NCBI GenBank assembly: GCA_041661765.1
Contig: JBAZTV010000001.1
Location: 300,791-364,790, forward strand
DNA: 64,000 bases
From: Candidatus Shapirobacteria bacterium
GTDB lineage: Bacteria > Patescibacteriota > Microgenomatia > UBA12405
Reading direction: 5' to 3'
In this document: positions 8,988 through 51,894 of the stretch, in pieces
Layout of the letters: every line of letters starts with the position of its first letter
Numbering within the stretch: position 1 is the first letter of the stretch
Position numbers and translations under genes: made by a program
Notes under the pieces: generated by a model
What the model was told of the DNA's origin: nothing
What the model saw: only the letters and a program-made list of their open reading frames with translations
Databases searched by the model: none

Positions 8988-11078
8988 ATGTTTTCAGATT
9001 TTACTTTTATTATTTCTTGGTGGTTTTTAATTTTTACATTAGGTCTAGCTTGTATACCTCTAACTTTTACTTTATTTAAAAATTTTTGGGATAAAGGTTA
9101 TATTTTTTCCAAAACTATTTGCATTATCGTTTTAACTTATTTAATTTTTATTGGTGGTGTTTTTAAAATTTTAACTTTCACCAGTTTAAATTTATTTTTA
9201 ATCATTCTTTTAATTTTATTTTTTAATTTCCTATTTCTTAAAAGAAAAAACAATTTTTCTGTTTTTTTAAAAACAATTAAGGAAAATTATAAAACTTTCA
9301 TTTTTGAAGAAATTATTTTTCTTTTAATTTTAGTTGTTTGGTCGTTTATTCGTGGTTTTATGCCAGATATTGAAGGTTTAGAAAAATATATGGATTGGGG
9401 TTTTATTAATTCTGCCTTAAGATCAGAGTTTTTACCGCCTCAAGATATGTGGTTTTCTGGTGAAATTATAAATTATTATTATTTTGGTCATCTTATTTTT
9501 GCTGTTTTAACTAAATTAAGCACTATTAGTTCGGCCATTACTTATAATTTATCTATTGCCACCGTCTGTGCCTTAACTTTTACATCTTCTTTTTCTATCG
9601 CTTCTAATTTAGTCTTCCTCACTCTCAAAAAAATCGATTTCAAAAAAATTATCATCGCTGGTCTAATTTCTGCTCTACTTTTAACTTTTGGTGGCAATCT
9701 TCATACCGTTTATAAAATTACCCAAATAAATATTACCGATAATGGCAAATTAACCCTAACAAAAGAAGCAATTACTAAAGCTGTCGACAAATACTGGTAT
9801 CCCGACGCCACTCGTTTTATTGGTTACGATCCAGATGTTAAAGACAAAACTATTCACGAGTTTCCGATTTATAGTTTTGTTGTGGCTGATCTTCACGGTC
9901 ATATGAACGACATTCCTGTTATTTTATTTTTTATGGCCTTTTTATTAGCCTCGAGTTTTTATTCATCCATACTAATTAACAATCTTTTAGTTATTATTTC
10001 TGGTTTTATTCTGTCGATTGCCTATATGACCAATGCTTGGGATTTCGCTATCTATGGTCTTCTTTTTGCTATTTTCACTTTCTTTTTAAATTTAAAAAAT
10101 GATTCAAAAACAGCCATTAAAAAAACTTTTATTAATGGAATTTTAACCATTATTTGTTGGTTTATTTTTTCCCTACCATTTTCTTTAAATTTTACCCCTA
10201 TGGGTAATGGTATTAAAATCTCGGATAACCACAGTCTTTTTTACCAACTATTTATCTTATATGGTGGCTTTTGGTTAATCATTTTACCTTTATTACTTTT
10301 ATTTTCAATAAAAAAAATTAAAAGAAAAAAAATCAATTTACAAACCTCTGATATTTTTGTTTTAGCTATTATTATCACTGCTACTCTTTTAATAATTATT
10401 CCCGAAATAATTTATTTAAAAGATATTTATATATATGAGCATCGACGTGCCAACACTATGTTCAAATTAACCTATCAGGCTTTTATTATGTATTCTTTAG
10501 TTTCTGGTTATGTTTTTTATAAAATTCGGATTCTATTAAAACCTAAATGGCTTAATTCTTTATACGGCCTACTATTTGCCATAATTTTTTCTATACAATT
10601 AATTTACCCCTATTTTACCATCAGATCATTTTACGGTTCTCTTAAAAATTATCAAGGATTATGGGGATTAAATTATTTAAAAAATGATTACCCTGATAAT
10701 TTTAATGCCATTAATTGGATTAATAAAAATATTTCTAATCAATCAGTAATGCTCGAAGCTGTTGGTGATAGCTATACTACTTTTAATCAAGTTTCATCCG
10801 CCACTGGGCTACCGACTGTTCAAGGTTGGATTGTGCATGAATGGCTTTGGCGCGGTGGCTACGATAAGCCTAAATTGCGTCAAGACAATGTCGAGGCTAT
10901 TTATGAAAGTGAAGATATTGGTCGATTGAAACAGTTAATTCAAAAATATAACATTAAATATATTTTTATTGGCGATAAGGAATATGAAAAATATCCAGGC
11001 CTAAATGAAGATAATTTCAAAGAAATTGGTGGGCAAGTTATTTTTCAGTCTGGTAAAACTAAAATTTACCAACTATAG
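8988..11078 (+). CDS. DUF2298 / chlor_Arch_YYY-domain large membrane protein (putative glycosyltransferase-like)
   Basis: 696 aa, many TM helices, diagnostic EIINYYYFGH (YYY motif) segment. Confidence 0.55.
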   Translation: MFSDFTFIISWWFLIFTLGLACIPLTFTLFKNFWDKGYIFSKTICIIVLTYLIFIGGVFKILTFTSLNLFLIILLILFFNFLFLKRKNNFSVFLKTIKENYKTFIFEEIIFLLILVVWSFIRGFMPDIEGLEKYMDWGFINSALRSEFLPPQDMWFSGEIINYYYFGHLIFAVLTKLSTISSAITYNLSIATVCALTFTSSFSIASNLVFLTLKKIDFKKIIIAGLISALLLTFGGNLHTVYKITQINITDNGKLTLTKEAITKAVDKYWYPDATRFIGYDPDVKDKTIHEFPIYSFVVADLHGHMNDIPVILFFMAFLLASSFYSSILINNLLVIISGFILSIAYMTNAWDFAIYGLLFAIFTFFLNLKNDSKTAIKKTFINGILTIICWFIFSLPFSLNFTPMGNGIKISDNHSLFYQLFILYGGFWLIILPLLLLFSIKKIKRKKINLQTSDIFVLAIIITATLLIIIPEIIYLKDIYIYEHRRANTMFKLTYQAFIMYSLVSGYVFYKIRILLKPKWLNSLYGLLFAIIFSIQLIYPYFTIRSFYGSLKNYQGLWGLNYLKNDYPDNFNAINWINKNISNQSVMLEAVGDSYTTFNQVSSATGLPTVQGWIVHEWLWRGGYDKPKLRQDNVEAIYESEDIGRLKQLIQKYNIKYIFIGDKEYEKYPGLNEDNFKEIGGQVIFQSGKTKIYQL

Positions 11079-11090
11079 TTAATCTTACCC

Positions 11091-13022
11091 ATGGAAGATA
11101 TTTTAGAAGGTTTAAACCCAAATCAAAAAGAAGCAGTTATCCATATTGGCTCTCCTTTGCTTTTATTAGCTGGAGCTGGTTCTGGTAAAACTCGAGTTTT
11201 AACTCACCGTGTAGCCTATTTTATTCAAAAAAAAATTGCCAAACCATCAGAAATTTTACTTCTCACTTTCACCAATAAGGCCGCCGAGGAGATGAGAAAC
11301 CGTACTAATAGATTAATTGTAGAGACGCCCCGACGGGGCGTCTCTACAACTGATAAAAATAATAAATCTTTATTAAAACAAAATATTTTTGCTGGAACTT
11401 TTCATTCTTTTTGCTGTCGAGTTTTACGTGCCGATGGCAATAATATTGGCATTCCCCCTAAATTTGTTATTTACGACTCAAATGATCAGGAAAATTTAAT
11501 CAAAAATATTCTTCACGAACTTGGCTTAACTACTAAAGAATTTAAACCTTCCAGCGTCTTATATTATATCGAAGCCGCAAAAAATTCTTTTCAAACTCCA
11601 AAAGACATGATTGCCCAAAGTCATGGTTTTTGGCAAGATTATGCCAGTAAAATTTATTCTCGTTACCAACAAAAACTATTTGAATTTCATGCTCTCGATT
11701 TTAACGATCTTTTATTTAAAACCGTTGAATTATTTTTACAATATCCAGATGTTTTGGCTAAATATCAAGATATTTATAAATTTATTATGGTTGATGAATA
11801 TCAAGACACTAATCAAATTCAATATCTTCTAACCAAACTTTTAGCCAAAAAATACAACCAAATTACTGTTGTTGGCGATGCTTCGCAGGCAATTTATGGT
11901 TGGCGCGGTGCCGATTATCGCAATCTTGTTAGTTTTACTACCGATTTCAAAAATACCAAAGTTATTAATCTTGAAGAAAACTATCGTTCCACTCAAATTA
12001 TTCTCGATGCTGCCAATACAGTCATTTCTAAAAATAATTCTCATCCAATTTTAAAATTATTCACTCAAAAAAAATCAGAAGATAAAATAAAAATTTTTGA
12101 AGCCGAATCAGAGGTTGCCGAGGCTGACTTTACTGCTTCCAAAATTAAATTTATTAATGATAATTTAAAAATTCCTTTGCGAAATATTGCCGTTCTTTAC
12201 CGGATGAATGCTCAATCGCGTGTTTTAGAAGAAGCCTTTTTGCGTCAGAGCATCCCTTATGTTTTATTAGGTGGGATTCGTTTTTATGAGCGTGCCGAAA
12301 TCAAAGATATTTTATCGATGCTTCGTTTTGCCAGTAATCCTGCAGATCATATTTCCGAAGAGAGAATCGAAAAAGCATTAGGCAAACGCAAAAAAGCAGT
12401 TCTAATTAATCATCTTGAAGATATGGATTTAGAAAACCTCACTTCACTTCAAATACTAGAATCATTGGTTGTAAATTCTGGCTATCTTAATAAATTTGAT
12501 GCTAAAGATGAGGAAGATCAGAAAAGAATTGAAAATATTAAAGAATTAAAATCAGTTGCTGCCGCACATCCTCAATTAAGTGCTTTTTTAGAAAATATCA
12601 CTTTAGTTCAACAAGAATATTCTCTTCAAGAAAAAAATAAGAAAAAAGAAAAACGCGACGGAGTTAAACTAATGACTCTTCACAGTGCCAAAGGTTTGGA
12701 GTTTGAAGTTGTTTTTATGGTTGGTTTTGAAGAGGGAATTTTACCTCACTCTCGCTGCCTAATTAACGAATCAGAAATCGAAGAAGAACGTCGTCTTTGT
12801 TATGTTGGTATTACTCGTGCGAAAGATTATCTTTATATTTCATATGCCAATAAACGTCTATTTTTCGGTAAAAGTAGCCTCAATGAACCGAGTCGATTTT
12901 TAGCCGATATTCCTCAAGAATTAGTTGAATTTGAGGAAAGTTTAGAAACCGTTCATGATTATCGCCATCCCAGAAAATCCAAAGACGATGATGACATCAT
13001 TTATGATCCCGATATATACTAA
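11091..13022 (+). CDS. UvrD/PcrA-family ATP-dependent DNA helicase
   Basis: Walker A AGAGSGKTRVL, DEYQDTN (motif II), later helicase motifs (GDASQAIYGWRGA, TLHSAKGLEF, GITRAKD); contains in-frame REP hairpin insertion at 11317..11349. Confidence 0.85.
   Translation: MEDILEGLNPNQKEAVIHIGSPLLLLAGAGSGKTRVLTHRVAYFIQKKIAKPSEILLLTFTNKAAEEMRNRTNRLIVETPRRGVSTTDKNNKSLLKQNIFAGTFHSFCCRVLRADGNNIGIPPKFVIYDSNDQENLIKNILHELGLTTKEFKPSSVLYYIEAAKNSFQTPKDMIAQSHGFWQDYASKIYSRYQQKLFEFHALDFNDLLFKTVELFLQYPDVLAKYQDIYKFIMVDEYQDTNQIQYLLTKLLAKKYNQITVVGDASQAIYGWRGADYRNLVSFTTDFKNTKVINLEENYRSTQIILDAANTVISKNNSHPILKLFTQKKSEDKIKIFEAESEVAEADFTASKIKFINDNLKIPLRNIAVLYRMNAQSRVLEEAFLRQSIPYVLLGGIRFYERAEIKDILSMLRFASNPADHISEERIEKALGKRKKAVLINHLEDMDLENLTSLQILESLVVNSGYLNKFDAKDEEDQKRIENIKELKSVAAAHPQLSAFLENITLVQQEYSLQEKNKKKEKRDGVKLMTLHSAKGLEFEVVFMVGFEEGILPHSRCLINESEIEEERRLCYVGITRAKDYLYISYANKRLFFGKSSLNEPSRFLADIPQELVEFEESLETVHDYRHPRKSKDDDDIIYDPDIY
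11317..11349. repeat. REP hairpin inserted in-frame in UvrD/PcrA helicase gene: TTGTAGAGACGCC-CCGACGG-GGCGTCTCTACAA
   Basis: 13-bp perfect stem, 7-nt loop; GC-rich island in AT-rich CDS; translated as ...VETPRRGVSTTDK... Confidence 0.7.
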
Positions 13023-13031
13023 ATTATCAAC

Positions 13032-14075
13032 ATGACTACTAAAATTCTTACCATTAAAGACAAAGAAAAATACGACTCTTTAATTATTCATCCAGTTCAA
13101 ACCTGGGAGTGGGGAGATTTTCAAATTTCCCAAGGACATACAGTTTATCGCCTCGGCGTTTTTGATGATAAAGAAAAAATAATTTCTGCCTATTCTGTCA
13201 GTTTTCATAAAATTCCTAAAACCAAATTTTCTATTGGTACGATTCTTCGTGGTCCAGAAATCGACGATGAAGCCATCAAAGAAATCACCGAAATTGCCAA
13301 AAAAGAAAACGCCATTTTTGTTAAGTTCGAACCAAATATTATTCATAAAAAATTTGATAATTTTAACAACAGCATTCCTATTTTCAAAAAACCAAATTTT
13401 CAAAATCTCAAAAAATCACCCAAAGTTGCTTTTTACCCCTTCACTTATTTAATCGACTTAACTAAAAGCGAAACTGAATTATTAGAATCAATGCATTCTA
13501 AGACTCGTTACAATATCAGAGTTGCTAATCGTTATAGTGTTGAAGTTGAAGAACGAACCGATGATAAAGGTTTTGAAATTTATTTAAAACTTCTCCTCGC
13601 TACCACCAAACGTCAGGGTTTTTATTTACACACCGAAAAATATCATCGCGATTTATGGAAAAAGTTAAAAGACACTGGTATGATTCACATCATATTGGCC
13701 TCTTATCAAAATGAAGTTCTTTCCGCCTTTATGATTTTCAAATTAAAAGACCAATTATTTTATCCATACGGTGCCTCTCTCCATACTAATCGTCAAGTCA
13801 TGGCTCAAAATCTTTTAATGTGGGAAGTAATTAAACTTGGTAAAAAATTAAAGTGTAAAACTTTTGATATGTGGGGTTGTCTTGGTCCACACGCCAAAGA
13901 AACTGAAAATGGTTTCGGTTTTCATCGTTTTAAGCAGGGCTATGGCGGTCAATTAGTCGAATATGTTGGAACTTATGATTTAATCATCAATCCAATTTTT
14001 TATAAAATTTACAATTCTGCTGATAAAATTCGCTGGAAAATTCTCCGTCTTAAGGCAAAAATTCTAAGAAAATAA
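13032..14075 (+). CDS. FemAB-family peptidoglycan interpeptide-bridge aminoacyltransferase-like
   Basis: Two-lobed GNAT-like FemX/FemAB pattern (SKTRYNIR, ...ASYQNEVLSAFMIF, YPYGAS). Confidence 0.55.
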   Translation: MTTKILTIKDKEKYDSLIIHPVQTWEWGDFQISQGHTVYRLGVFDDKEKIISAYSVSFHKIPKTKFSIGTILRGPEIDDEAIKEITEIAKKENAIFVKFEPNIIHKKFDNFNNSIPIFKKPNFQNLKKSPKVAFYPFTYLIDLTKSETELLESMHSKTRYNIRVANRYSVEVEERTDDKGFEIYLKLLLATTKRQGFYLHTEKYHRDLWKKLKDTGMIHIILASYQNEVLSAFMIFKLKDQLFYPYGASLHTNRQVMAQNLLMWEVIKLGKKLKCKTFDMWGCLGPHAKETENGFGFHRFKQGYGGQLVEYVGTYDLIINPIFYKIYNSADKIRWKILRLKAKILRK

Positions 14076-27097: not shown

Positions 27098-27594
27098 TTT
27101 TTCAATCTCCCCTAGCCCCTCTTTGACAAGAGGGGAACTAAATCATCAATTTTCTTTTTTACGGAATCAATATTATCTATCACTTCTTCATTTGTAAATC
27201 TTATTGTTGTAACCCCAATTTGTTTCAAAAATTTATCCCTCAATTCATCCGTTCCTTTCTTTTTAATATGCGATTCACCATCAATCTCAATTGCCAATGA
27301 TAATTTTGAACAATAAAAATCAACAATAAATCGATCAATTGGTTTTTGTCTCAGAAATCTATAGCCGGTTTTATCTCTCGACAAAATTTTATCCCAAATT
27401 ATTTTTTCAGCATCAGTCGGTTTCGTTCTATTTTTCTGCGACATAAAAGTCAAACTATTTCGATATCGAACACAATTTCTTTTAGAATTTATCGCTTCAT
27501 AATCAACCGATTTTTTCATTAAAAAATTATATATTCCCCCGTCTTGTCAAAGAAGGGGGCAGGGGGAAGATTGAATAAAAAGGGGAGATTGAAA
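27098..27594. mobile_element. candidate miniature selfish element: DUF559 gene bounded by 14-bp perfect terminal inverted repeats (TTTCAATCTCCCCT / AGGGGAGATTGAAA) and sub-terminal GC-rich hairpins
   Basis: Left end 27100..27113 and right end 27581..27594 are exact reverse complements; hairpins CCCCTCTT-TGAC-AAGAGGGG (27116..27135) and CCCCCGTCTT-GTCA-AAGAAGGGGG (27536..27559) are near-copies of each other in inverted orientation. Confidence 0.4.
27112..27519 (-). CDS. DUF559 endonuclease-like protein (Vsr/restriction-endonuclease-like fold)
   Basis: IWDKILSRDKTGYRFLRQKPIDRFIVDFYCSKLSLAIEIDGESH...GVTTIRFTNEEV matches the DUF559 pattern; C-terminal 9 codons are encoded by the left terminal hairpin. 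Confidence 0.65.
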   Translation of the reverse strand: MKKSVDYEAINSKRNCVRYRNSLTFMSQKNRTKPTDAEKIIWDKILSRDKTGYRFLRQKPIDRFIVDFYCSKLSLAIEIDGESHIKKKGTDELRDKFLKQIGVTTIRFTNEEVIDNIDSVKKKIDDLVPLLSKRG

Positions 27595-30643: not shown

Positions 30644-31366
30644 ATGGACTCAAAAGACAGAATCATTATCCCTATCGACAACAGTGGTCTCTACAAGGCT
30701 ATCAAAACAGTAGAGACACTAAAGCCCTATGTTGGAATGTTTAAATTTGGTTTAGAGATGATTACCTTTATAGTAACCAAAATAGCAACCACAGGGGATA
30801 TTACTTTGGCTAGAAAAGTCAAAGAATTATTTACTCTTGTCGAGGGTCAATTGTTTTGGGATGGCAAATGGGCAGATATTCCTAACACTGTCGGTCAGGC
30901 CGCTTTGGCTATTCAATCGTTGAATCCTAAATTAATCAATATTCATGCGTCATGCGGTGTGACGGCTATTAAGGAGGTGGTTAAAAACAAAGGGTTTAGT
31001 CAGGTTTTAGGAGTTACGGTTTTGACTAGTATTGACTCAGAAGAATGCGTTTCGATTTTTGGAAATAAACCAGGAATCAAAGTTGTTGAATTTGCCAAAT
31101 TTTTGATTGATTCTGGAGCTGATGGAATAATTTGTTCACCACAAGAATTAAGATTATTGGAAGGTTTTCCTTTAATAAAAGTTACTCCAGGGGTTAGACC
31201 AGTATGGGCATCAGTAAATGATCAAAAACGAGTTATGACCCCAAGTGAAGCAGTTAAAGCTGGTGCTGATTATCTTGTTATCGGCCGGCCTATTACTAGT
31301 CCACCAAATGGCATAACTCAGTTAGAGGCAGTTAAAAAAATAATTGAAGAATTGGAGGCAGTTTAA
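30644..31366 (+). CDS. pyrF: orotidine 5'-phosphate decarboxylase
   Basis: IIPIDNS..., KFGLE, ADIPNTV, GVRP...QKRVMTP...GADYLVIGRPI motifs. Confidence 0.75.
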   Translation: MDSKDRIIIPIDNSGLYKAIKTVETLKPYVGMFKFGLEMITFIVTKIATTGDITLARKVKELFTLVEGQLFWDGKWADIPNTVGQAALAIQSLNPKLINIHASCGVTAIKEVVKNKGFSQVLGVTVLTSIDSEECVSIFGNKPGIKVVEFAKFLIDSGADGIICSPQELRLLEGFPLIKVTPGVRPVWASVNDQKRVMTPSEAVKAGADYLVIGRPITSPPNGITQLEAVKKIIEELEAV

Positions 31367-33379: not shown

Positions 33380-33406
33380 GTAGAGACGACCAATATGGGC
33401 GTCTCA
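33380..33406. repeat. degenerate REP hairpin (GTAGAGACG-ACCAATATGGG-CGTCTC)
   Basis: Between grpE stop and dnaK start. Confidence 0.45.
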
Positions 33407-35384: not shown

Positions 35385-35412
35385 GTAGAGACGCCATGCA
35401 TGGCGTCTCTAC
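35385..35412. repeat. REP hairpin, 28-nt perfect palindrome GTAGAGACGCCATG|CATGGCGTCTCTAC
   Basis: Between dnaK stop and dnaJ start. Confidence 0.6.
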
Positions 35413-39585: not shown

Positions 39586-39612
39586 AAAAGCCCCGTTCCT
39601 CGGGGCTTTTTT
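39586..39612. terminator. bidirectional rho-independent terminator
   Basis: AAAAGCCCCG-TTCCT-CGGGGCTTTTTT (A-tract before, T-tract after). Confidence 0.7.
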
Positions 39613-44409: not shown

Positions 44410-46152
44410 ATGTTAAAACAAAAAACAAATTTTACAAATGCACCCAATCAAGTCAGAGAATATAAATCTGGAACTGATTCGGTCCGAATCAGTTCACTTG
44501 GTGGTTTCGGTGACGTTACTCAGAATATGTTCGTTTACGAATTTATTCCTAGTGGCGACGCATCCAAAAGCCAAATTATTATTGTCGACTGTGGTGTCGG
44601 TTTTCCTGAAGAAGATGCTTTTGGCGTCGATCTTCAAATACCAGACACTCACTATCTTCAAGACAAAAAAGACCGAATTTTAGGTATTTTTATAACCCAT
44701 GGTCATGAAGATCATATCGGTGCTGTCCGTTTTATTCTACCTATTCTTGGGCAGAATATTCCCATATATTCTCCCAAATTAGCCGCTGCTTTTATCGAAG
44801 CCAGACTTGGTGAAGTTCAAATTCGTGCCAATCTTCAGACTTATGACGAGTCGACTTTACCAATTGTTAAAGGTGTTTTTACTGTCGATCCAATTAGGGT
44901 TACTCATTCGATTCCTGACACTTATCATTTCGCCATCACCACCCCCATGGGTATTTTTTACCATGGTTCCGATTTTAAATTAGACCTTTTTCCTCTCGAT
45001 GGCAAAGGTGCTGATTATCAACACATTGCCCGTATTGGTGAAGGTAAAGTTATTGCTCTAATGTCTGATAGTTTAGGTTCTGATCATGAAGGTTGGTCAC
45101 CATCAGAAGGTTCTATTGCTGAAAATTTTAAAAGAGAAATAGTCTCTGCAAAAGGTCGTGTTTTTGTCACTTCAATTTCCAGTAATATCGTTCGTTGGGC
45201 TCAAGCCATTGAATATGGTAAAAGTGTTGGCCGAAAAATAGTTATTGTTGGTTTCTCTGTCGACAGAGCTATTAATATTGCTAAAGATTTAGGTTATGTA
45301 ACCCTTGCCGAGACTGATCTTATTCCTCTTGAAAGAGTTAAAAATTTTGCCGAAAATAAACTTTTATTTCTAGTTGCCGGTTTTGCCGGTCAACCAGATT
45401 CAGCTTTAAGTAAAATGATTATGGGTAAACACAGGGTAAAAGTTAAATCTGGAGATAAAGTCATTTTTTCTTCTCCAGATTACATTCCTGGTACTACTTC
45501 TAATATTTATAATATGATTGACCTTCTTTCTAAAATGGGCGCTGAAGTCATTTATGGTGAAAAAGAAGAATTACATGTTTCCGGTCATGGTTATCAAAAA
45601 GAACATGCTCTTTTAATCAGTTTATTAAAACCAAAATATTTATTACCAATTGGTGGTAATTATCGTCATCTCAAATGCTATCAACAAATGGCTAAAAAAT
45701 TAGGCTATAACGATGATCAAGTTATTTTACCCGATTTCGATGCTTCAGCCACTTTTCACAACAATGGTACAGTTGACACTAATTATCACATCTCCATCAG
45801 AAAAATTTTAATCGATGGTTTTGGAGTTGGTGATGTCGGCACTACTGTCTTACGTGATCGTAAATTATTGGCCGAAGATGGAATGTTCTCTGTTGTCCTT
45901 TTAATGGACAAAGAATCTGGCCAATTAAGTAAACCACCCGTAATTCTTAGCCGTGGTTTCGTTTTCATGAAAGAAAATACCGAACTTATGGACTTTTTAA
46001 AATTAGAGGTTAGTAACAAATTTAAACAATCCACCAGCACTCCGGCCAATATGGATTTCATTCGTGAAGAAGTTCAGGCTTATCTCGAAGAAATTATTTA
46101 CAAAAAAACCGGCCGCCAACCTATGGTCTTACCGCTGGTTATTGAGGTCTAA
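44410..46152 (+). CDS. rnj: ribonuclease J (beta-CASP metallo-beta-lactamase RNase)
   Basis: HGHEDHIGA motif, beta-CASP and C-terminal domain; 580 aa. Confidence 0.85.
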   Translation: MLKQKTNFTNAPNQVREYKSGTDSVRISSLGGFGDVTQNMFVYEFIPSGDASKSQIIIVDCGVGFPEEDAFGVDLQIPDTHYLQDKKDRILGIFITHGHEDHIGAVRFILPILGQNIPIYSPKLAAAFIEARLGEVQIRANLQTYDESTLPIVKGVFTVDPIRVTHSIPDTYHFAITTPMGIFYHGSDFKLDLFPLDGKGADYQHIARIGEGKVIALMSDSLGSDHEGWSPSEGSIAENFKREIVSAKGRVFVTSISSNIVRWAQAIEYGKSVGRKIVIVGFSVDRAINIAKDLGYVTLAETDLIPLERVKNFAENKLLFLVAGFAGQPDSALSKMIMGKHRVKVKSGDKVIFSSPDYIPGTTSNIYNMIDLLSKMGAEVIYGEKEELHVSGHGYQKEHALLISLLKPKYLLPIGGNYRHLKCYQQMAKKLGYNDDQVILPDFDASATFHNNGTVDTNYHISIRKILIDGFGVGDVGTTVLRDRKLLAEDGMFSVVLLMDKESGQLSKPPVILSRGFVFMKENTELMDFLKLEVSNKFKQSTSTPANMDFIREEVQAYLEEIIYKKTGRQPMVLPLVIEV

Positions 46153-46193: not shown

Positions 46194-46793
46194 GTGCCAT
46201 TAATCAATATTCAAACCAAATTTGCTGACAAATTTAAATTAAAATCATCTCGTCTTCAAAACTGGAATTATTCAACTCCAGGATATTACTTCATCACCAT
46301 CTGTACCCACAACCACAATAATTTTTTTGGAAAAATTATTAACAACAAGATGGAATTGTCAAAACGTGGTGAAATTACTAAATCTGAATTATTAAAAACA
46401 TTTGAAATCAGAAAAAATATTAAATTACATGAATGGGTAATTATGCCAAATCATGTGCATGTTTTAATGGAAATTGAAAAACAAAATTATCAACACAATA
46501 AATGTAGAGACGTAGCGCGCTACGTCTCTACAAAACTAAACAACATCTCTACAGAAGAAAATAATAAAAATTTTTCAAAAATTTCACCCAAACCAAATTC
46601 AATTTCATCAATAATACGTTCATTCAAATCAGCCGTTACCCATCAAATAAATCCCAAAACAATATTTTTTGCTTAGCAACCCCGTTTCCACGATCAGATC
46701 ATTAAAGATGAAAAAGAATATTTTTTAATCAAAAAATACATTCAAAATAATATAAAAAATTGGGATAAAGATAATTTTTTTAGTTTAAAGTAA
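46194..46793 (+). pseudogene. REP-associated tyrosine transposase (RAYT / IS200-like TnpA_REP), disrupted by in-frame REP insertion and an internal TAG
   Basis: HUH motif MPNHVHVLM; ORF stops at TAG 46674..46676 exactly where RAYTs have the conserved Trp of (I/L)WQxRF(H/Y)D; downstream frame continues QPRFHDQIIKDEKEYFLIKKYIQNNIKNW... to TAA at 46791..46793; REP hairpin 46503..46532 sits in-frame inside the gene. Confidence 0.6.
46503..46532. repeat. REP hairpin inside RAYT gene: TGTAGAGACGTAGCG|CGCTACGTCTCTACA
   Basis: Perfect 30-nt palindrome; translated in-frame as ...KCRDVARYVSTK... Confidence 0.7.
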
Positions 46794-51705: not shown

Positions 51706-51894
51706 GTAGAGACGCATTGTATGCGTCTCTTGGTAATAAATTCAAAATAAAACATAATTAATTTAGAGACGCACGCAGTGCGTCTCTACTGACGATAAAT
51801 AAAATTTTATAGAGACGTTCTACAGAACGTCTCTATTGATATAAAAATTGAATAATTTGTTTAGTAGTAGGAACACGCCATGGCGTGTTCCTAC
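51706..51894. repeat. tandem cluster of four REP hairpins (GTAGAGACG-type x3 plus GTAGGAACACGCC variant)
   Basis: 51706..51732 GTAGAGACGCAT-TGT-ATGCGTCTCT; 51764..51788 TAGAGACGCAC-GCA-GTGCGTCTCTA; 51810..51835 TAGAGACGTTC-TACA-GAACGTCTCTA; 51867..51894 GTAGGAACACGCCA|TGGCGTGTTCCTAC. Confidence 0.7.

Follow-up and report, generated by a model that had tools for sequence, protein, structure and literature searches.

A probable double-foot REP copy translated within the motif Ia-Ib linker of a UvrD/PcrA-type helicase from Candidatus Shapirobacteria

A REP-like hairpin inside a helicase gene

The genome of a Candidatus Shapirobacteria bacterium, a member of the candidate phyla radiation (CPR)/Patescibacteria, encodes a UvrD/PcrA-type helicase whose gene is interrupted, in frame, by a GC-rich palindrome. 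The gene lies in a 64-kb stretch of a metagenome-assembled genome (GCA_041661765.1, contig JBAZTV010000001.1, positions 300,791 to 364,790 of the forward strand), hereinafter the window, and the palindrome occupies positions 11317-11349 of it. The explanation that we favor, with a probability of roughly 0.8, is that this hairpin is a copy of a 'double-foot' repetitive extragenic palindromic (REP) element that was inserted in the permissive linker between helicase motifs Ia and Ib and is carried there as a tolerated passenger. An in-frame REP in a helicase gene is a genuine event, but one of a kind that has been recorded before; what appears mildly new is the CPR host and phylum, the site of the insertion and the recurrence of such elements in the same linker.

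The plus strand of 11317-11349 reads TTGTAGAGACGCCCCGACGGGGCGTCTCTACAA and consists of TT, a 29-nt core REP unit (11319-11347, comprising GTAGAGACG, 11 nt and CGTCTCTAC) and AA. The perfect portion of the hairpin measures 16+1+16 nt and the computed fold is a 15-bp stem with a 3-nt loop, so that the initial annotation, which correctly recognized a palindromic GC island at this position, understated the structure as a 13-bp stem with a 7-nt loop. With a repeat finder, the arms extend to 11312-11332 and 11334-11354 (90% complementarity, 1-nt gap). The GC content of the 33-nt hairpin is 61%, compared to 33% in the remainder of the helicase gene. The minimum free energy is -31.1 kcal/mol when the hairpin is folded as RNA (z = -6.65) and -19.5 kcal/mol when it is folded as DNA (z = -8.69), and in both cases none of the 200 shuffled sequences folds equally well. 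Perfect 16-bp inverted repeats are expected by chance about 8e-4 times in 64 kb at the composition of the window, and the pattern GTAGAGACG-N(3-30)-CGTCTCTAC is found three times in the window versus 0.00 times in shuffled sequences.

The host gene (11091-13022, plus strand) encodes an apparently intact superfamily 1 (SF1) helicase of 643 aa, in the translation of which all conserved motifs are readable. It is 100% identical to the protein P0001 of a 'Candidatus Shapirobacteria bacterium' metagenome-assembled genome. The protein matches the Pfam families UvrD-helicase (PF00580, 1.7e-84) and UvrD_C (PF13361, 4.2e-61) as well as the PcrA structure 1pjr (2.9e-142). It retains all the columns that are invariant among 61 other aligned orthologs (the window protein being the reference row of this alignment), is of full length (643 aa versus 626-646 aa in 119 relatives) and is collinear with its relatives on both sides of the hairpin. 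The helicase carrying the insert is predicted to remain active. The hairpin is located 3' of motif Ia (TFTNKAAEEM; TFTNKAA) and 5' of motif Ib (GTFHS), and not between motifs I and Ia as originally proposed, and is translated as VETPRRGVSTTDK, i.e., VETPRRGVSTT, followed by DK. Among the three frames of the repeat unit, frame 1 always begins with the stop codon TAG whereas frames 0 (VET...) and 2 (RD...VS) are usually open; the helicase copy uses one of these two open frames, which yields the 11 codons that are extra compared to the empty-site ortholog in locus L162.

The segment that accommodates the hairpin is a hypervariable linker running from motif Ia to motif Ib (11292-11393, plus strand), as delineated by the ortholog alignment and an AlphaFold2 model. 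The number of residues from motif Ia (FTNKAA) to GTFH ranges from 26 to 46 across 120 ortholog clusters (70-100% identity). In the AlphaFold2 model, which has a mean predicted local distance difference test (pLDDT) score of 76.5 overall, residues 77-87 directly follow the motif Ia helix (residues 62-77) and form a coil before the GTFH strand (residues 100-103); the mean pLDDT drops to 45 at residues 81-90 and is below 50 at residues 82-96. The segment falls opposite a gap in the alignments with PcrA (1pjr) and UvrD1 (9dci), neither of which has an equivalent. The linker is thus predicted to be a poorly modeled, probably surface loop of freely variable length, and it is for this reason that a REP copy could persist there and that the added 11-aa peptide is most likely a tolerated passenger rather than a functional module.

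Orthologous genes without the hairpin

Genome and metagenome scans yielded only about nine close relatives, and the DNA of the key orthologs was collected protein by protein. The closest orthologs of the helicase (P0003, P0004 and P0005; the corresponding DNA loci are L162 and L161) lack the segment and possess instead a short A-rich linker; outside the linker, they are about 96% identical to the window at the amino acid level and about 89% identical at the nucleotide level. The linker is uninterrupted in both L162 and L161 (in L162, it reads TTA ATA AAT AAA AAT AAT AAA GAA), and the window sequence just 3' of the hairpin, GAT AAA AAT AAT AAA, matches the empty linker, AAT AAA AAT AAT AAA. Because of this match, the simplest reading is a gain of 33 nt in an L162-like linker, accompanied by a second, unrelated 12-nt length difference in the same linker (11366-11377, plus strand; TCTTTATTAAAA, encoding SLLK).

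The absence of the hairpin from the closest orthologs identifies the segment as an insertion. The initial annotation suggested an alignment of UvrD/PcrA orthologs as a check; carried out here, this alignment, with the nearest orthologs lacking the segment and both structures gapped at it, supports an in-frame insertion into a gene that is otherwise intact, within a permissive loop. It was further stated that an equivalent conserved segment in orthologous helicases would argue for the opposite. No such segment is conserved across the orthologs, but the more distant ortholog in locus L163 (74% identical protein) does contain a near-identical hairpin one codon away. The segment is one state of a hypervariable linker and not a conserved feature of the orthologs. 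The order of the genes around the window helicase is the same as in L161, L164 and L166.

The REP family in the window and beyond

The helicase hairpin belongs, as was initially proposed, to a family of GTAGAGACG...CGTCTCTAC repeats that are found in intergenic regions and inside a RAYT (REP-associated tyrosine transposase)-like gene. The window contains eight copies, seven with the core TAGAGACG...CGTCTCTA and one variant with GTAGGAAC...GTTCCTAC; the conserved 9-mer, with one mismatch allowed, occurs 20 times versus 3.2 expected. Six copies are intergenic and two reside within open reading frames (ORFs), namely the helicase gene and the Y1 transposase-like ORF. The intergenic copies begin 10-13 nt past a stop codon: a degenerate one follows grpE (33380-33405, 12 nt past the stop codon), another is located in the dnaK-dnaJ spacer (35385-35412, 13 nt past the dnaK stop codon; the inner part is CCATGCATGG, and the copy would read VETPCMASL), and four are clustered upstream of alaS (51706-51894, starting 10 nt past the preceding stop codon), at 51706-51730, 51763-51789, 51809-51836 and, for the GTAGGAAC variant, 51867-51894. 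The alaS-upstream cluster, with its four hairpins at approximately 50-nt spacing, all with different inner stems, in a 230-nt spacer after a 105-aa ORF, resembles a bacterial interspersed mosaic element (BIME), and its copy at 51809 would read RDVLQNVS, a variant that is also present within RAYT genes of other genomes.

Positions 1-9 of the stem are conserved across the eight copies, whereas at positions 10-14 as many as four types of Watson-Crick pair occur, and mismatches are few. GTAG...CTAC ends are found in the helicase unit (11319-11347) and in three further copies (35385, 46504 and 51867); the ends of the remaining copies are degenerate. Outside the window, the outer stem GTAGAGACG...CGTCTCTAC is found exactly in at least 120 IMG/VR contigs (L170-L289, labeled viral) with a GC content of 35-69%, where the common inner variants are CGATTAATCG (RDAINRVST) and CAAAATTTTG (VETQNFASL). 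Among the matches listed, half of these copies are within stop-free stretches of at least 120 codons and none adjoins a HuH motif. The VETPRRGVST variant is also encoded in one of the viral contig loci (L274), within a 563-codon stretch.

In 115 distinct contexts, the boundary of the family is exactly GTAG/CTAC, with 18-31% pairing in the flanks, close to chance; the inner part is 10 nt long in 99 of these contexts and 11 nt long in 13. No conserved flank, target-site duplication or palindromy past GTAG/CTAC was detected in the same set. Given that both the pairing and the motif stop at GTAG/CTAC, the mobile unit is predicted to be the bare 28-29-nt hairpin. We also considered as a target signal the TTAATT that is shared by three local copies; this candidate was dropped as weak because the DNA holds about five TTAAT per kb. 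Every family hairpin contains CGTCTC/GAGACG twice, in inverted orientation (e.g., window positions 11323-11328 and 11338-11343), which is the sequence recognized by BsmBI/Esp3I, enzymes of type IIS.

Two functional assignments unrelated to mobile elements were examined for the helicase hairpin and discarded. A scan of 10900-13200 for intrinsic terminators or attenuators reports no site at this position, and the tail of the hairpin (CAACTGATAAAAAT) has no T tract. Rfam yields no matches at the gathering thresholds across the whole window and, around 11200-11450, there are only sub-threshold matches to generic stem-loops (at most 23.8 bits versus a threshold of 80), so that the hairpin does not correspond to a known structured RNA.

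The RAYT-like gene

The putative cognate enzyme of the family is a RAYT-like Y1 (HuH) transposase that is encoded at 46194-46790 (plus strand), in a gene interrupted by a TAG codon at 46674-46676. The ORF that ends with this codon (46194-46676, 160 aa) contains the HuH motif PNHVHVL and, just after it, an in-frame REP (46504-46531; frame 2, CRDVARYVST). The TAG (FFA*QPRFHD) takes the place of the Trp of the WQxRF motif (F(F)AWQPRFHD) that is present in 39 of the 39 full-length homologs listed for this region. Past the TAG, the frame is free of stops over another 38 codons; these agree with the family and cover the region that aligns with the catalytic Tyr of the structure 4er8. The read-through product (199 aa) has the length of the intact homologs (94-99% coverage) and scores 26.8 bits with the Pfam profile Y1_Tnp (cut-off 23), compared to 21 bits for the 160-aa ORF. 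The top NCBIfam match of the gene is 'REP-associated tyrosine transposase' (REP_Tyr_transpos, E = 4.6e-16), at 59 bits, below the 80-bit equivalog cut-off. The enzyme aligns weakly with 4er8, over the HuH strand and over the region WQPRF...YI, with YI opposite 4er8 residues 115-116, which puts the region of the catalytic Tyr downstream of the TAG. The combination of HuH, WQxRF and Tyr in a single frame is found in intact homologs but not in the window copy. Judging from its sequence, the gene appears to be a nonsense pseudogene, or else would need read-through; since the stop codon precedes the predicted catalytic Tyr region, the sole RAYT-like copy in the window is probably inactive, and present-day mobility in this genome would therefore need another copy elsewhere.

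In the 69 RAYT homologs listed from an alignment of 120, the variable segment after the HuH motif, between the HuH strand (beta3) and alphaC, is built from in-frame REP copies, with one to three copies each and in two reading frames; clear REP signatures are detectable in 53 of the 145 RAYT representatives obtained by clustering at 50%, and in many others the signature has decayed. Two homologs (P0280 and P0368) encode exactly VETPRRGVST, whereas VETPCMASL and CRDVLQNVST are encoded inside others. The DNA of locus L290 shows two REPs within the RAYT gene and one more 10 nt past its stop codon; no REP copy flanking the RAYT-like gene was found in the window. The presence of REPs inside RAYT genes is not new and was described previously (Quentin et al. 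2018, PMC6006769).

A tentative scenario for the insertion

Combining these observations, we propose the following scenario. The mobile unit would be a double-foot REP of 28-29 nt, with GTAG at the 5' end and CTAC at the 3' end, the conserved outer stem GTAGAGACG and a variable, self-complementary inner stem. In the Candidatus Shapirobacteria lineage, a copy of this unit would have entered the pcrA/uvrD gene at the A-rich linker that separates motifs Ia and Ib, arriving through single-strand cleavage and joining by TnpA-REP at the replication fork, by analogy with TnpA-REP of Escherichia coli and with IS200/IS605: the enzyme would cut at the GTAG foot of the single-stranded hairpin and then rejoin the ends. 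Such cleavage and joining by a cognate TnpA-REP is suggested, indirectly, by the occurrence of identical inner-stem variants at unrelated sites and in unrelated genomes. The 29-nt unit together with four further bases would account for the net gain of 33 nt that keeps the frame, the additional bases being required because a unit of 28-29 nt is not a multiple of three. Under this scenario, the repeated occupancy of the linker would reflect permissiveness and not targeting, and the pattern would be reinforced by survivorship bias, the genome being gene-dense. The passenger interpretation fits most of the data, in that a disordered, low-complexity loop appears to collect every kind of length change.

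Recurrent occupancy of the linker in other lineages

Hairpins and other length changes are found in the same linker in several relatives. In L163, where the fourfold degenerate sites are 50% identical to those of the window, the hairpin is GTAGAGACGTCCCGGCGGGGCGTCTCTAC, located one codon further 3' and identical to the window copy in 27 of the 29 positions. L165 contains a decayed hairpin. A second type of hairpin, GTAMGGGCG...CGCCCKTAC (encoding VRAxHDxPL), occupies one orthologous linker position in five lineages, namely L164 (10235-10262) and L166, L167, L168 and L169 (approximately 10232-10262). It is perfect in L164 and has an intact inner stem in L166 and L167, whereas in L169 and L168 the pairing has decayed by synonymous substitutions and the peptide is kept. 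Elsewhere, two variants of this type are represented in 23 and 10 viral contig loci, respectively, with the inner bases mostly paired; no RAYT carrying the type-2 (GTAAGGGCG) hairpin was detected by peptide signature among 265 homologs. The linker additionally contains indels caused by tandem repeats, such as three copies of CTACGAT in L165, which encode TTYDLRS (approximately 500-540), and two copies of a 14-nt unit in L082, which give IDDRKSTIENRK (approximately 205-250).

In a protein neighbor-joining (NJ) tree with the linker masked, the hairpin states are scattered. In an NJ tree built from the nucleotide sequences of 11 genes, the carriers of the type-2 hairpin are basal and the window is placed among empty and type-2 relatives, with bootstrap values of 19-88% that are too weak for firm counts of gains and losses. 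The gene tree joins L162 with L164 (88% bootstrap), yet the linker of L162 is of the window/L161 type (NKNNK) and does not contain the type-2 hairpin of L164; this conflict hints at within-gene recombination among close Shapirobacteria lineages. Many orthologs have linker peptides of the 'AGLPAK...' type, and L005 contains a small GCGGG-TTCA-CCCGC hairpin, which may represent a third hairpin family.

Weighing the alternatives

Several points weigh against the view that the hairpin is a REP copy that landed in a merely tolerant loop. A tblastn search found no second RAYT copy in the 64-kb window, and the one copy that is present carries a nonsense codon. The length of the 29-nt unit is not divisible by three, so that the in-frame state requires four extra bases. 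The copy numbers reported above are those of the 64-kb window, and the intactness of the message and protein of the insert-bearing helicase is judged from sequence. Furthermore, the recurrence in the linker looks too frequent for random landing: the loci L163 (14.7 kb) and L164 (21.9 kb) each contain a single GTA-N6...TAC hairpin, which is the one in the linker, and the joint chance of both placements is about 2e-5 if they are independent and uniform. Finally, at the type-2 site of L164, L166 and L167, perfect 10-14-bp pairing is kept through double, compensated substitutions at three pairs, which could be a sign of selection on the structure and not of mere tolerance.

The last two observations point to an alternative that we consider unlikely, namely that the linker between motifs Ia and Ib is a true target or docking site for GTA-footed REPs, which are inserted or exchanged there by TnpA-REP, or that the stem-loop is selected as a DNA or mRNA cis element of pcrA. 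Variants of this idea, to which we give no greater credence, are that the transposase prefers the linker DNA or the resident hairpin (so that one REP replaces another), that the hairpin controls the expression of the helicase, or that it is a docking site through which the HuH enzyme is connected with a helicase that it may require. Such explanations would account for the presence of two hairpin families and several decayed copies within the same 15-codon stretch of different lineages, for the 5' junction TTAATT|GTAGAGAC that the window shares with L165, and for the 27/29 identity between the window and L163 hairpins, which under neutral descent has P = 7e-7 to 2e-5. They are also in line with the overrepresentation, left unexplained, of intragenic REPs among genes for replication and repair and with REPs at the same site of recB in two Xanthomonas species (Di Nocera 2013, PMC3733652).

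Against these explanations, the closest relatives do well without any hairpin, and the synonymous decay of the pairing in L169 and L168, with the peptide kept, is the opposite of what selection on structure would produce. The linker also gathers tandem-repeat indels that are not hairpins, as expected of a merely permissive loop; there is no conserved flanking motif in the 115 contexts, and the TTAAT coincidence is weak. The 27/29 identity is mostly that of the family-invariant outer stem, and the inner 9/11 positions alone give P = 0.03-0.08. Moreover, variable and perfectly paired inner stems are typical of all copies of the family, and therefore different hairpins at one site can equally represent separate insertions. 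On balance, insertion of a REP copy into a permissive loop remains the preferred explanation.

The segment could, alternatively, be an ancestral, lineage-specific loop of the helicase that was deleted in the orthologs with an empty linker, a possibility that we regard as quite improbable. It draws on the near-identical hairpin in the distant L163 and on the decayed copy of L165, in which the 5' junction is that of the window; hairpins are, besides, prone to deletion. The segment is nevertheless the exact consensus of a dispersed repeat that is also found in intergenic regions and in unrelated contigs, and it is a perfect palindrome although the nearest relatives have diverged by about 10% at the nucleotide level. 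The hairpin-free linker of L162 and L161 matches the window flanks, PcrA and UvrD1 have no equivalent, and the earlier-branching L167, L168, L169 and L166 hold a different hairpin at this place.

Two further explanations appear very improbable. The window comes from a metagenome-assembled genome, in which repeats can misjoin contigs, and the exact helicase protein, although present in the collection as P0001, has no recorded gene position in the contig index; a chimeric assembly at the repeat, or a pseudogene with an ORF open by chance, is however hard to reconcile with the full-length, collinear ORF that keeps all invariant columns, with the surrounding gene order shared with L161, L164 and L166, and with in-frame hairpins of the same kind in the independent assemblies L163, L164, L166 and L167. 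Correction of quasi-palindromes by template switching is an established mutational mechanism, and an origin of the palindrome in situ within the A-rich linker, through template switching or fold-back synthesis and without any mobile element, could explain the perfectly compensated inner stems, but it cannot yield the shared family consensus, given that other window copies and at least 120 unrelated contigs have exactly the same outer 9+9 bases and that the whole VETPRRGVST variant recurs in RAYT genes of other organisms.

Relationship to known REP systems

The closest parallel is the double-foot REPs that are tied to subclass 2.4 of TnpA-Y1 and possess 5' GT[AG]G together with the reverse complement of this sequence, C[TC]AC, at the 3' end (Quentin et al. 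2018, BMC Genomics 19:475, PMC6006769). In that work, subclass 2.4 TnpA-REP is characterized by the presence of a REP copy within the RAYT gene itself, and REP insertions in unrelated genes are suggested to be potentially harmless in flexible loops. The window family shows the same GTAG...CTAC ends, dispersed copies and a REP inside the RAYT-like gene and its homologs. In double-foot REPs, the basal stem of 7-20 nt is paired throughout and the loop measures 2-5 nt, in agreement with the 15-bp stem and 3-nt loop of the helicase hairpin; such REPs are found mainly outside genes, near gene 3' ends, like the six intergenic copies among the eight in 64 kb; and they are associated with a RAYT, here the ORF at 46194-46790 with its in-frame copy at 46504-46531. 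The present case differs in its nonsense-truncated enzyme and in the copy in a housekeeping gene; its host is a CPR/Patescibacteria genome. By analogy, the window hairpin appears to be a REP of the type associated with subclass 2.4 TnpA-REP.

Translated REPs within genes have been cataloged extensively. GTAG- and CGTC-tagged REPs that lie wholly within ORFs and are translated have been described in many species, and numerous interrupted proteins have roles in DNA synthesis or repair, including the 'UvrD/REP helicase' (Di Nocera, De Gregorio, Rocco 2013, BMC Genomics 14:522, PMC3733652); tabulated cases include RPE_2137 (residues 278-288) and Kole_1028 (residues 914-923). In view of this catalog, the remark in the initial annotation that in-frame palindromic elements are unusual in organisms other than Rickettsia is no longer current. 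The window resembles these cases in having a translated hairpin in a repair helicase and extragenic copies 10-13 nt past stop codons, the extragenic REPs of Di Nocera et al. being within about 20 bp of upstream stop codons (PMC3733652). In contrast, their UvrD/REP helicase cases are of the CGTC type and involve other positions of the protein, whereas the present one is in the Ia-Ib linker and in another phylum; furthermore, their tag is unpaired at one end, and here GTAG pairs with CTAC.

The Rickettsia palindromic elements (RPEs) are likewise inserted in frame, and the products of the genes concerned probably remain functional (Ogata et al., cited in PMC3733652), but their ends are tagged with CGTC and not GTAG, and no dedicated transposase is known for CGTC repeats (PMC3733652). 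The window element shares with RPEs the in-frame location of a palindromic repeat and differs in its length of 29 nt, the GTAG/CTAC tags and the RAYT-like partner gene; an assignment to the RPEs was accordingly rejected in the absence of the CGTC tag. RPE-1 is roughly 100-150 bp long and adds tens of residues to the protein.

The REP/BIME system of E. coli with its TnpA-REP (RAYT) was reportedly characterized by Nunvar in 2010 and by Messing in 2012, the latter with the structure PDB 4ER8. Cleavage and rejoining by the E. coli enzyme have been shown in vitro, according to PMC3733652. The window shares with E. coli the GTAG-tagged hairpins and a single-copy Y1 HuH enzyme. The REPs of E. coli, however, have an unpaired GTAG and imperfect stems, form BIME or REPIN dimers and flank the enzyme gene, whereas the window unit is a symmetric singlet and is found inside the enzyme gene. 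Transposons of the IS200/IS605 group (IS608, ISDra2), in which a Y1 HuH transposase recognizes hairpins in single-stranded DNA, provide a mechanistic template; their hairpins are the ends of a complete, transposase-carrying element, unlike the bare unit of the window, and they insert beside a defined tetra- or pentanucleotide, a motif of which there is no trace in the 115 family contexts.

Literature searches that linked RAYT or REP with Patescibacteria, and searches for the hairpin string and its peptide signatures, returned nothing relevant. In practical terms, the GC-rich 11 codons can be annotated as a translated REP copy, rather than as a novel domain, a mistake or what is left of an intein, and the truncated 'transposase' 35 kb away as the matching RAYT-type gene. 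The observations of Di Nocera et al. (2013) and Quentin et al. (2018) are thereby extended to an ultra-small CPR genome in which intergenic space is scarce. The recurrence in the linker, with two hairpin families, decayed copies and tandem-repeat indels, offers a natural test bed for distinguishing REP sites that are chosen by the transposase from those that are filtered by selection. If selection alone acts, the finding is ordinary; if the linker is a target or the stem-loop a cis element, a functional tie between a HuH single-strand DNA enzyme and the gene of an SF1 helicase would be hinted at.

Other hairpins in the window

Several additional hairpins were noticed in the window. At 30686-30718, within the ORF 30644-31366, GGTCTCTAC-N15-GTAGAGACA resembles the family with the arms reversed (the 3' arm comes first) and has an 8-bp stem and a 15-nt loop; it may be due to chance because about three matches to the 9-mer with one mismatch are expected per window. 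At 44471-44495, near the 5' end of a 580-aa ORF (44410-46152), GAACTGATTCGGTCCGAATCAGTTC forms a perfect 10-bp palindrome whose loop measures 5 nt; it does not belong to the GTAG family and encodes TDSVRISS; by a rough estimate, about 0.5 stems of this kind are expected by chance per 64 kb. Two GC-rich intergenic hairpins outside the REP family are located at 39586-39610 and 27536-27559; of these, AAAAGCCCCG...CGGGGCTTTT, with its A- and T-rich flanks, resembles an ordinary bidirectional terminator.

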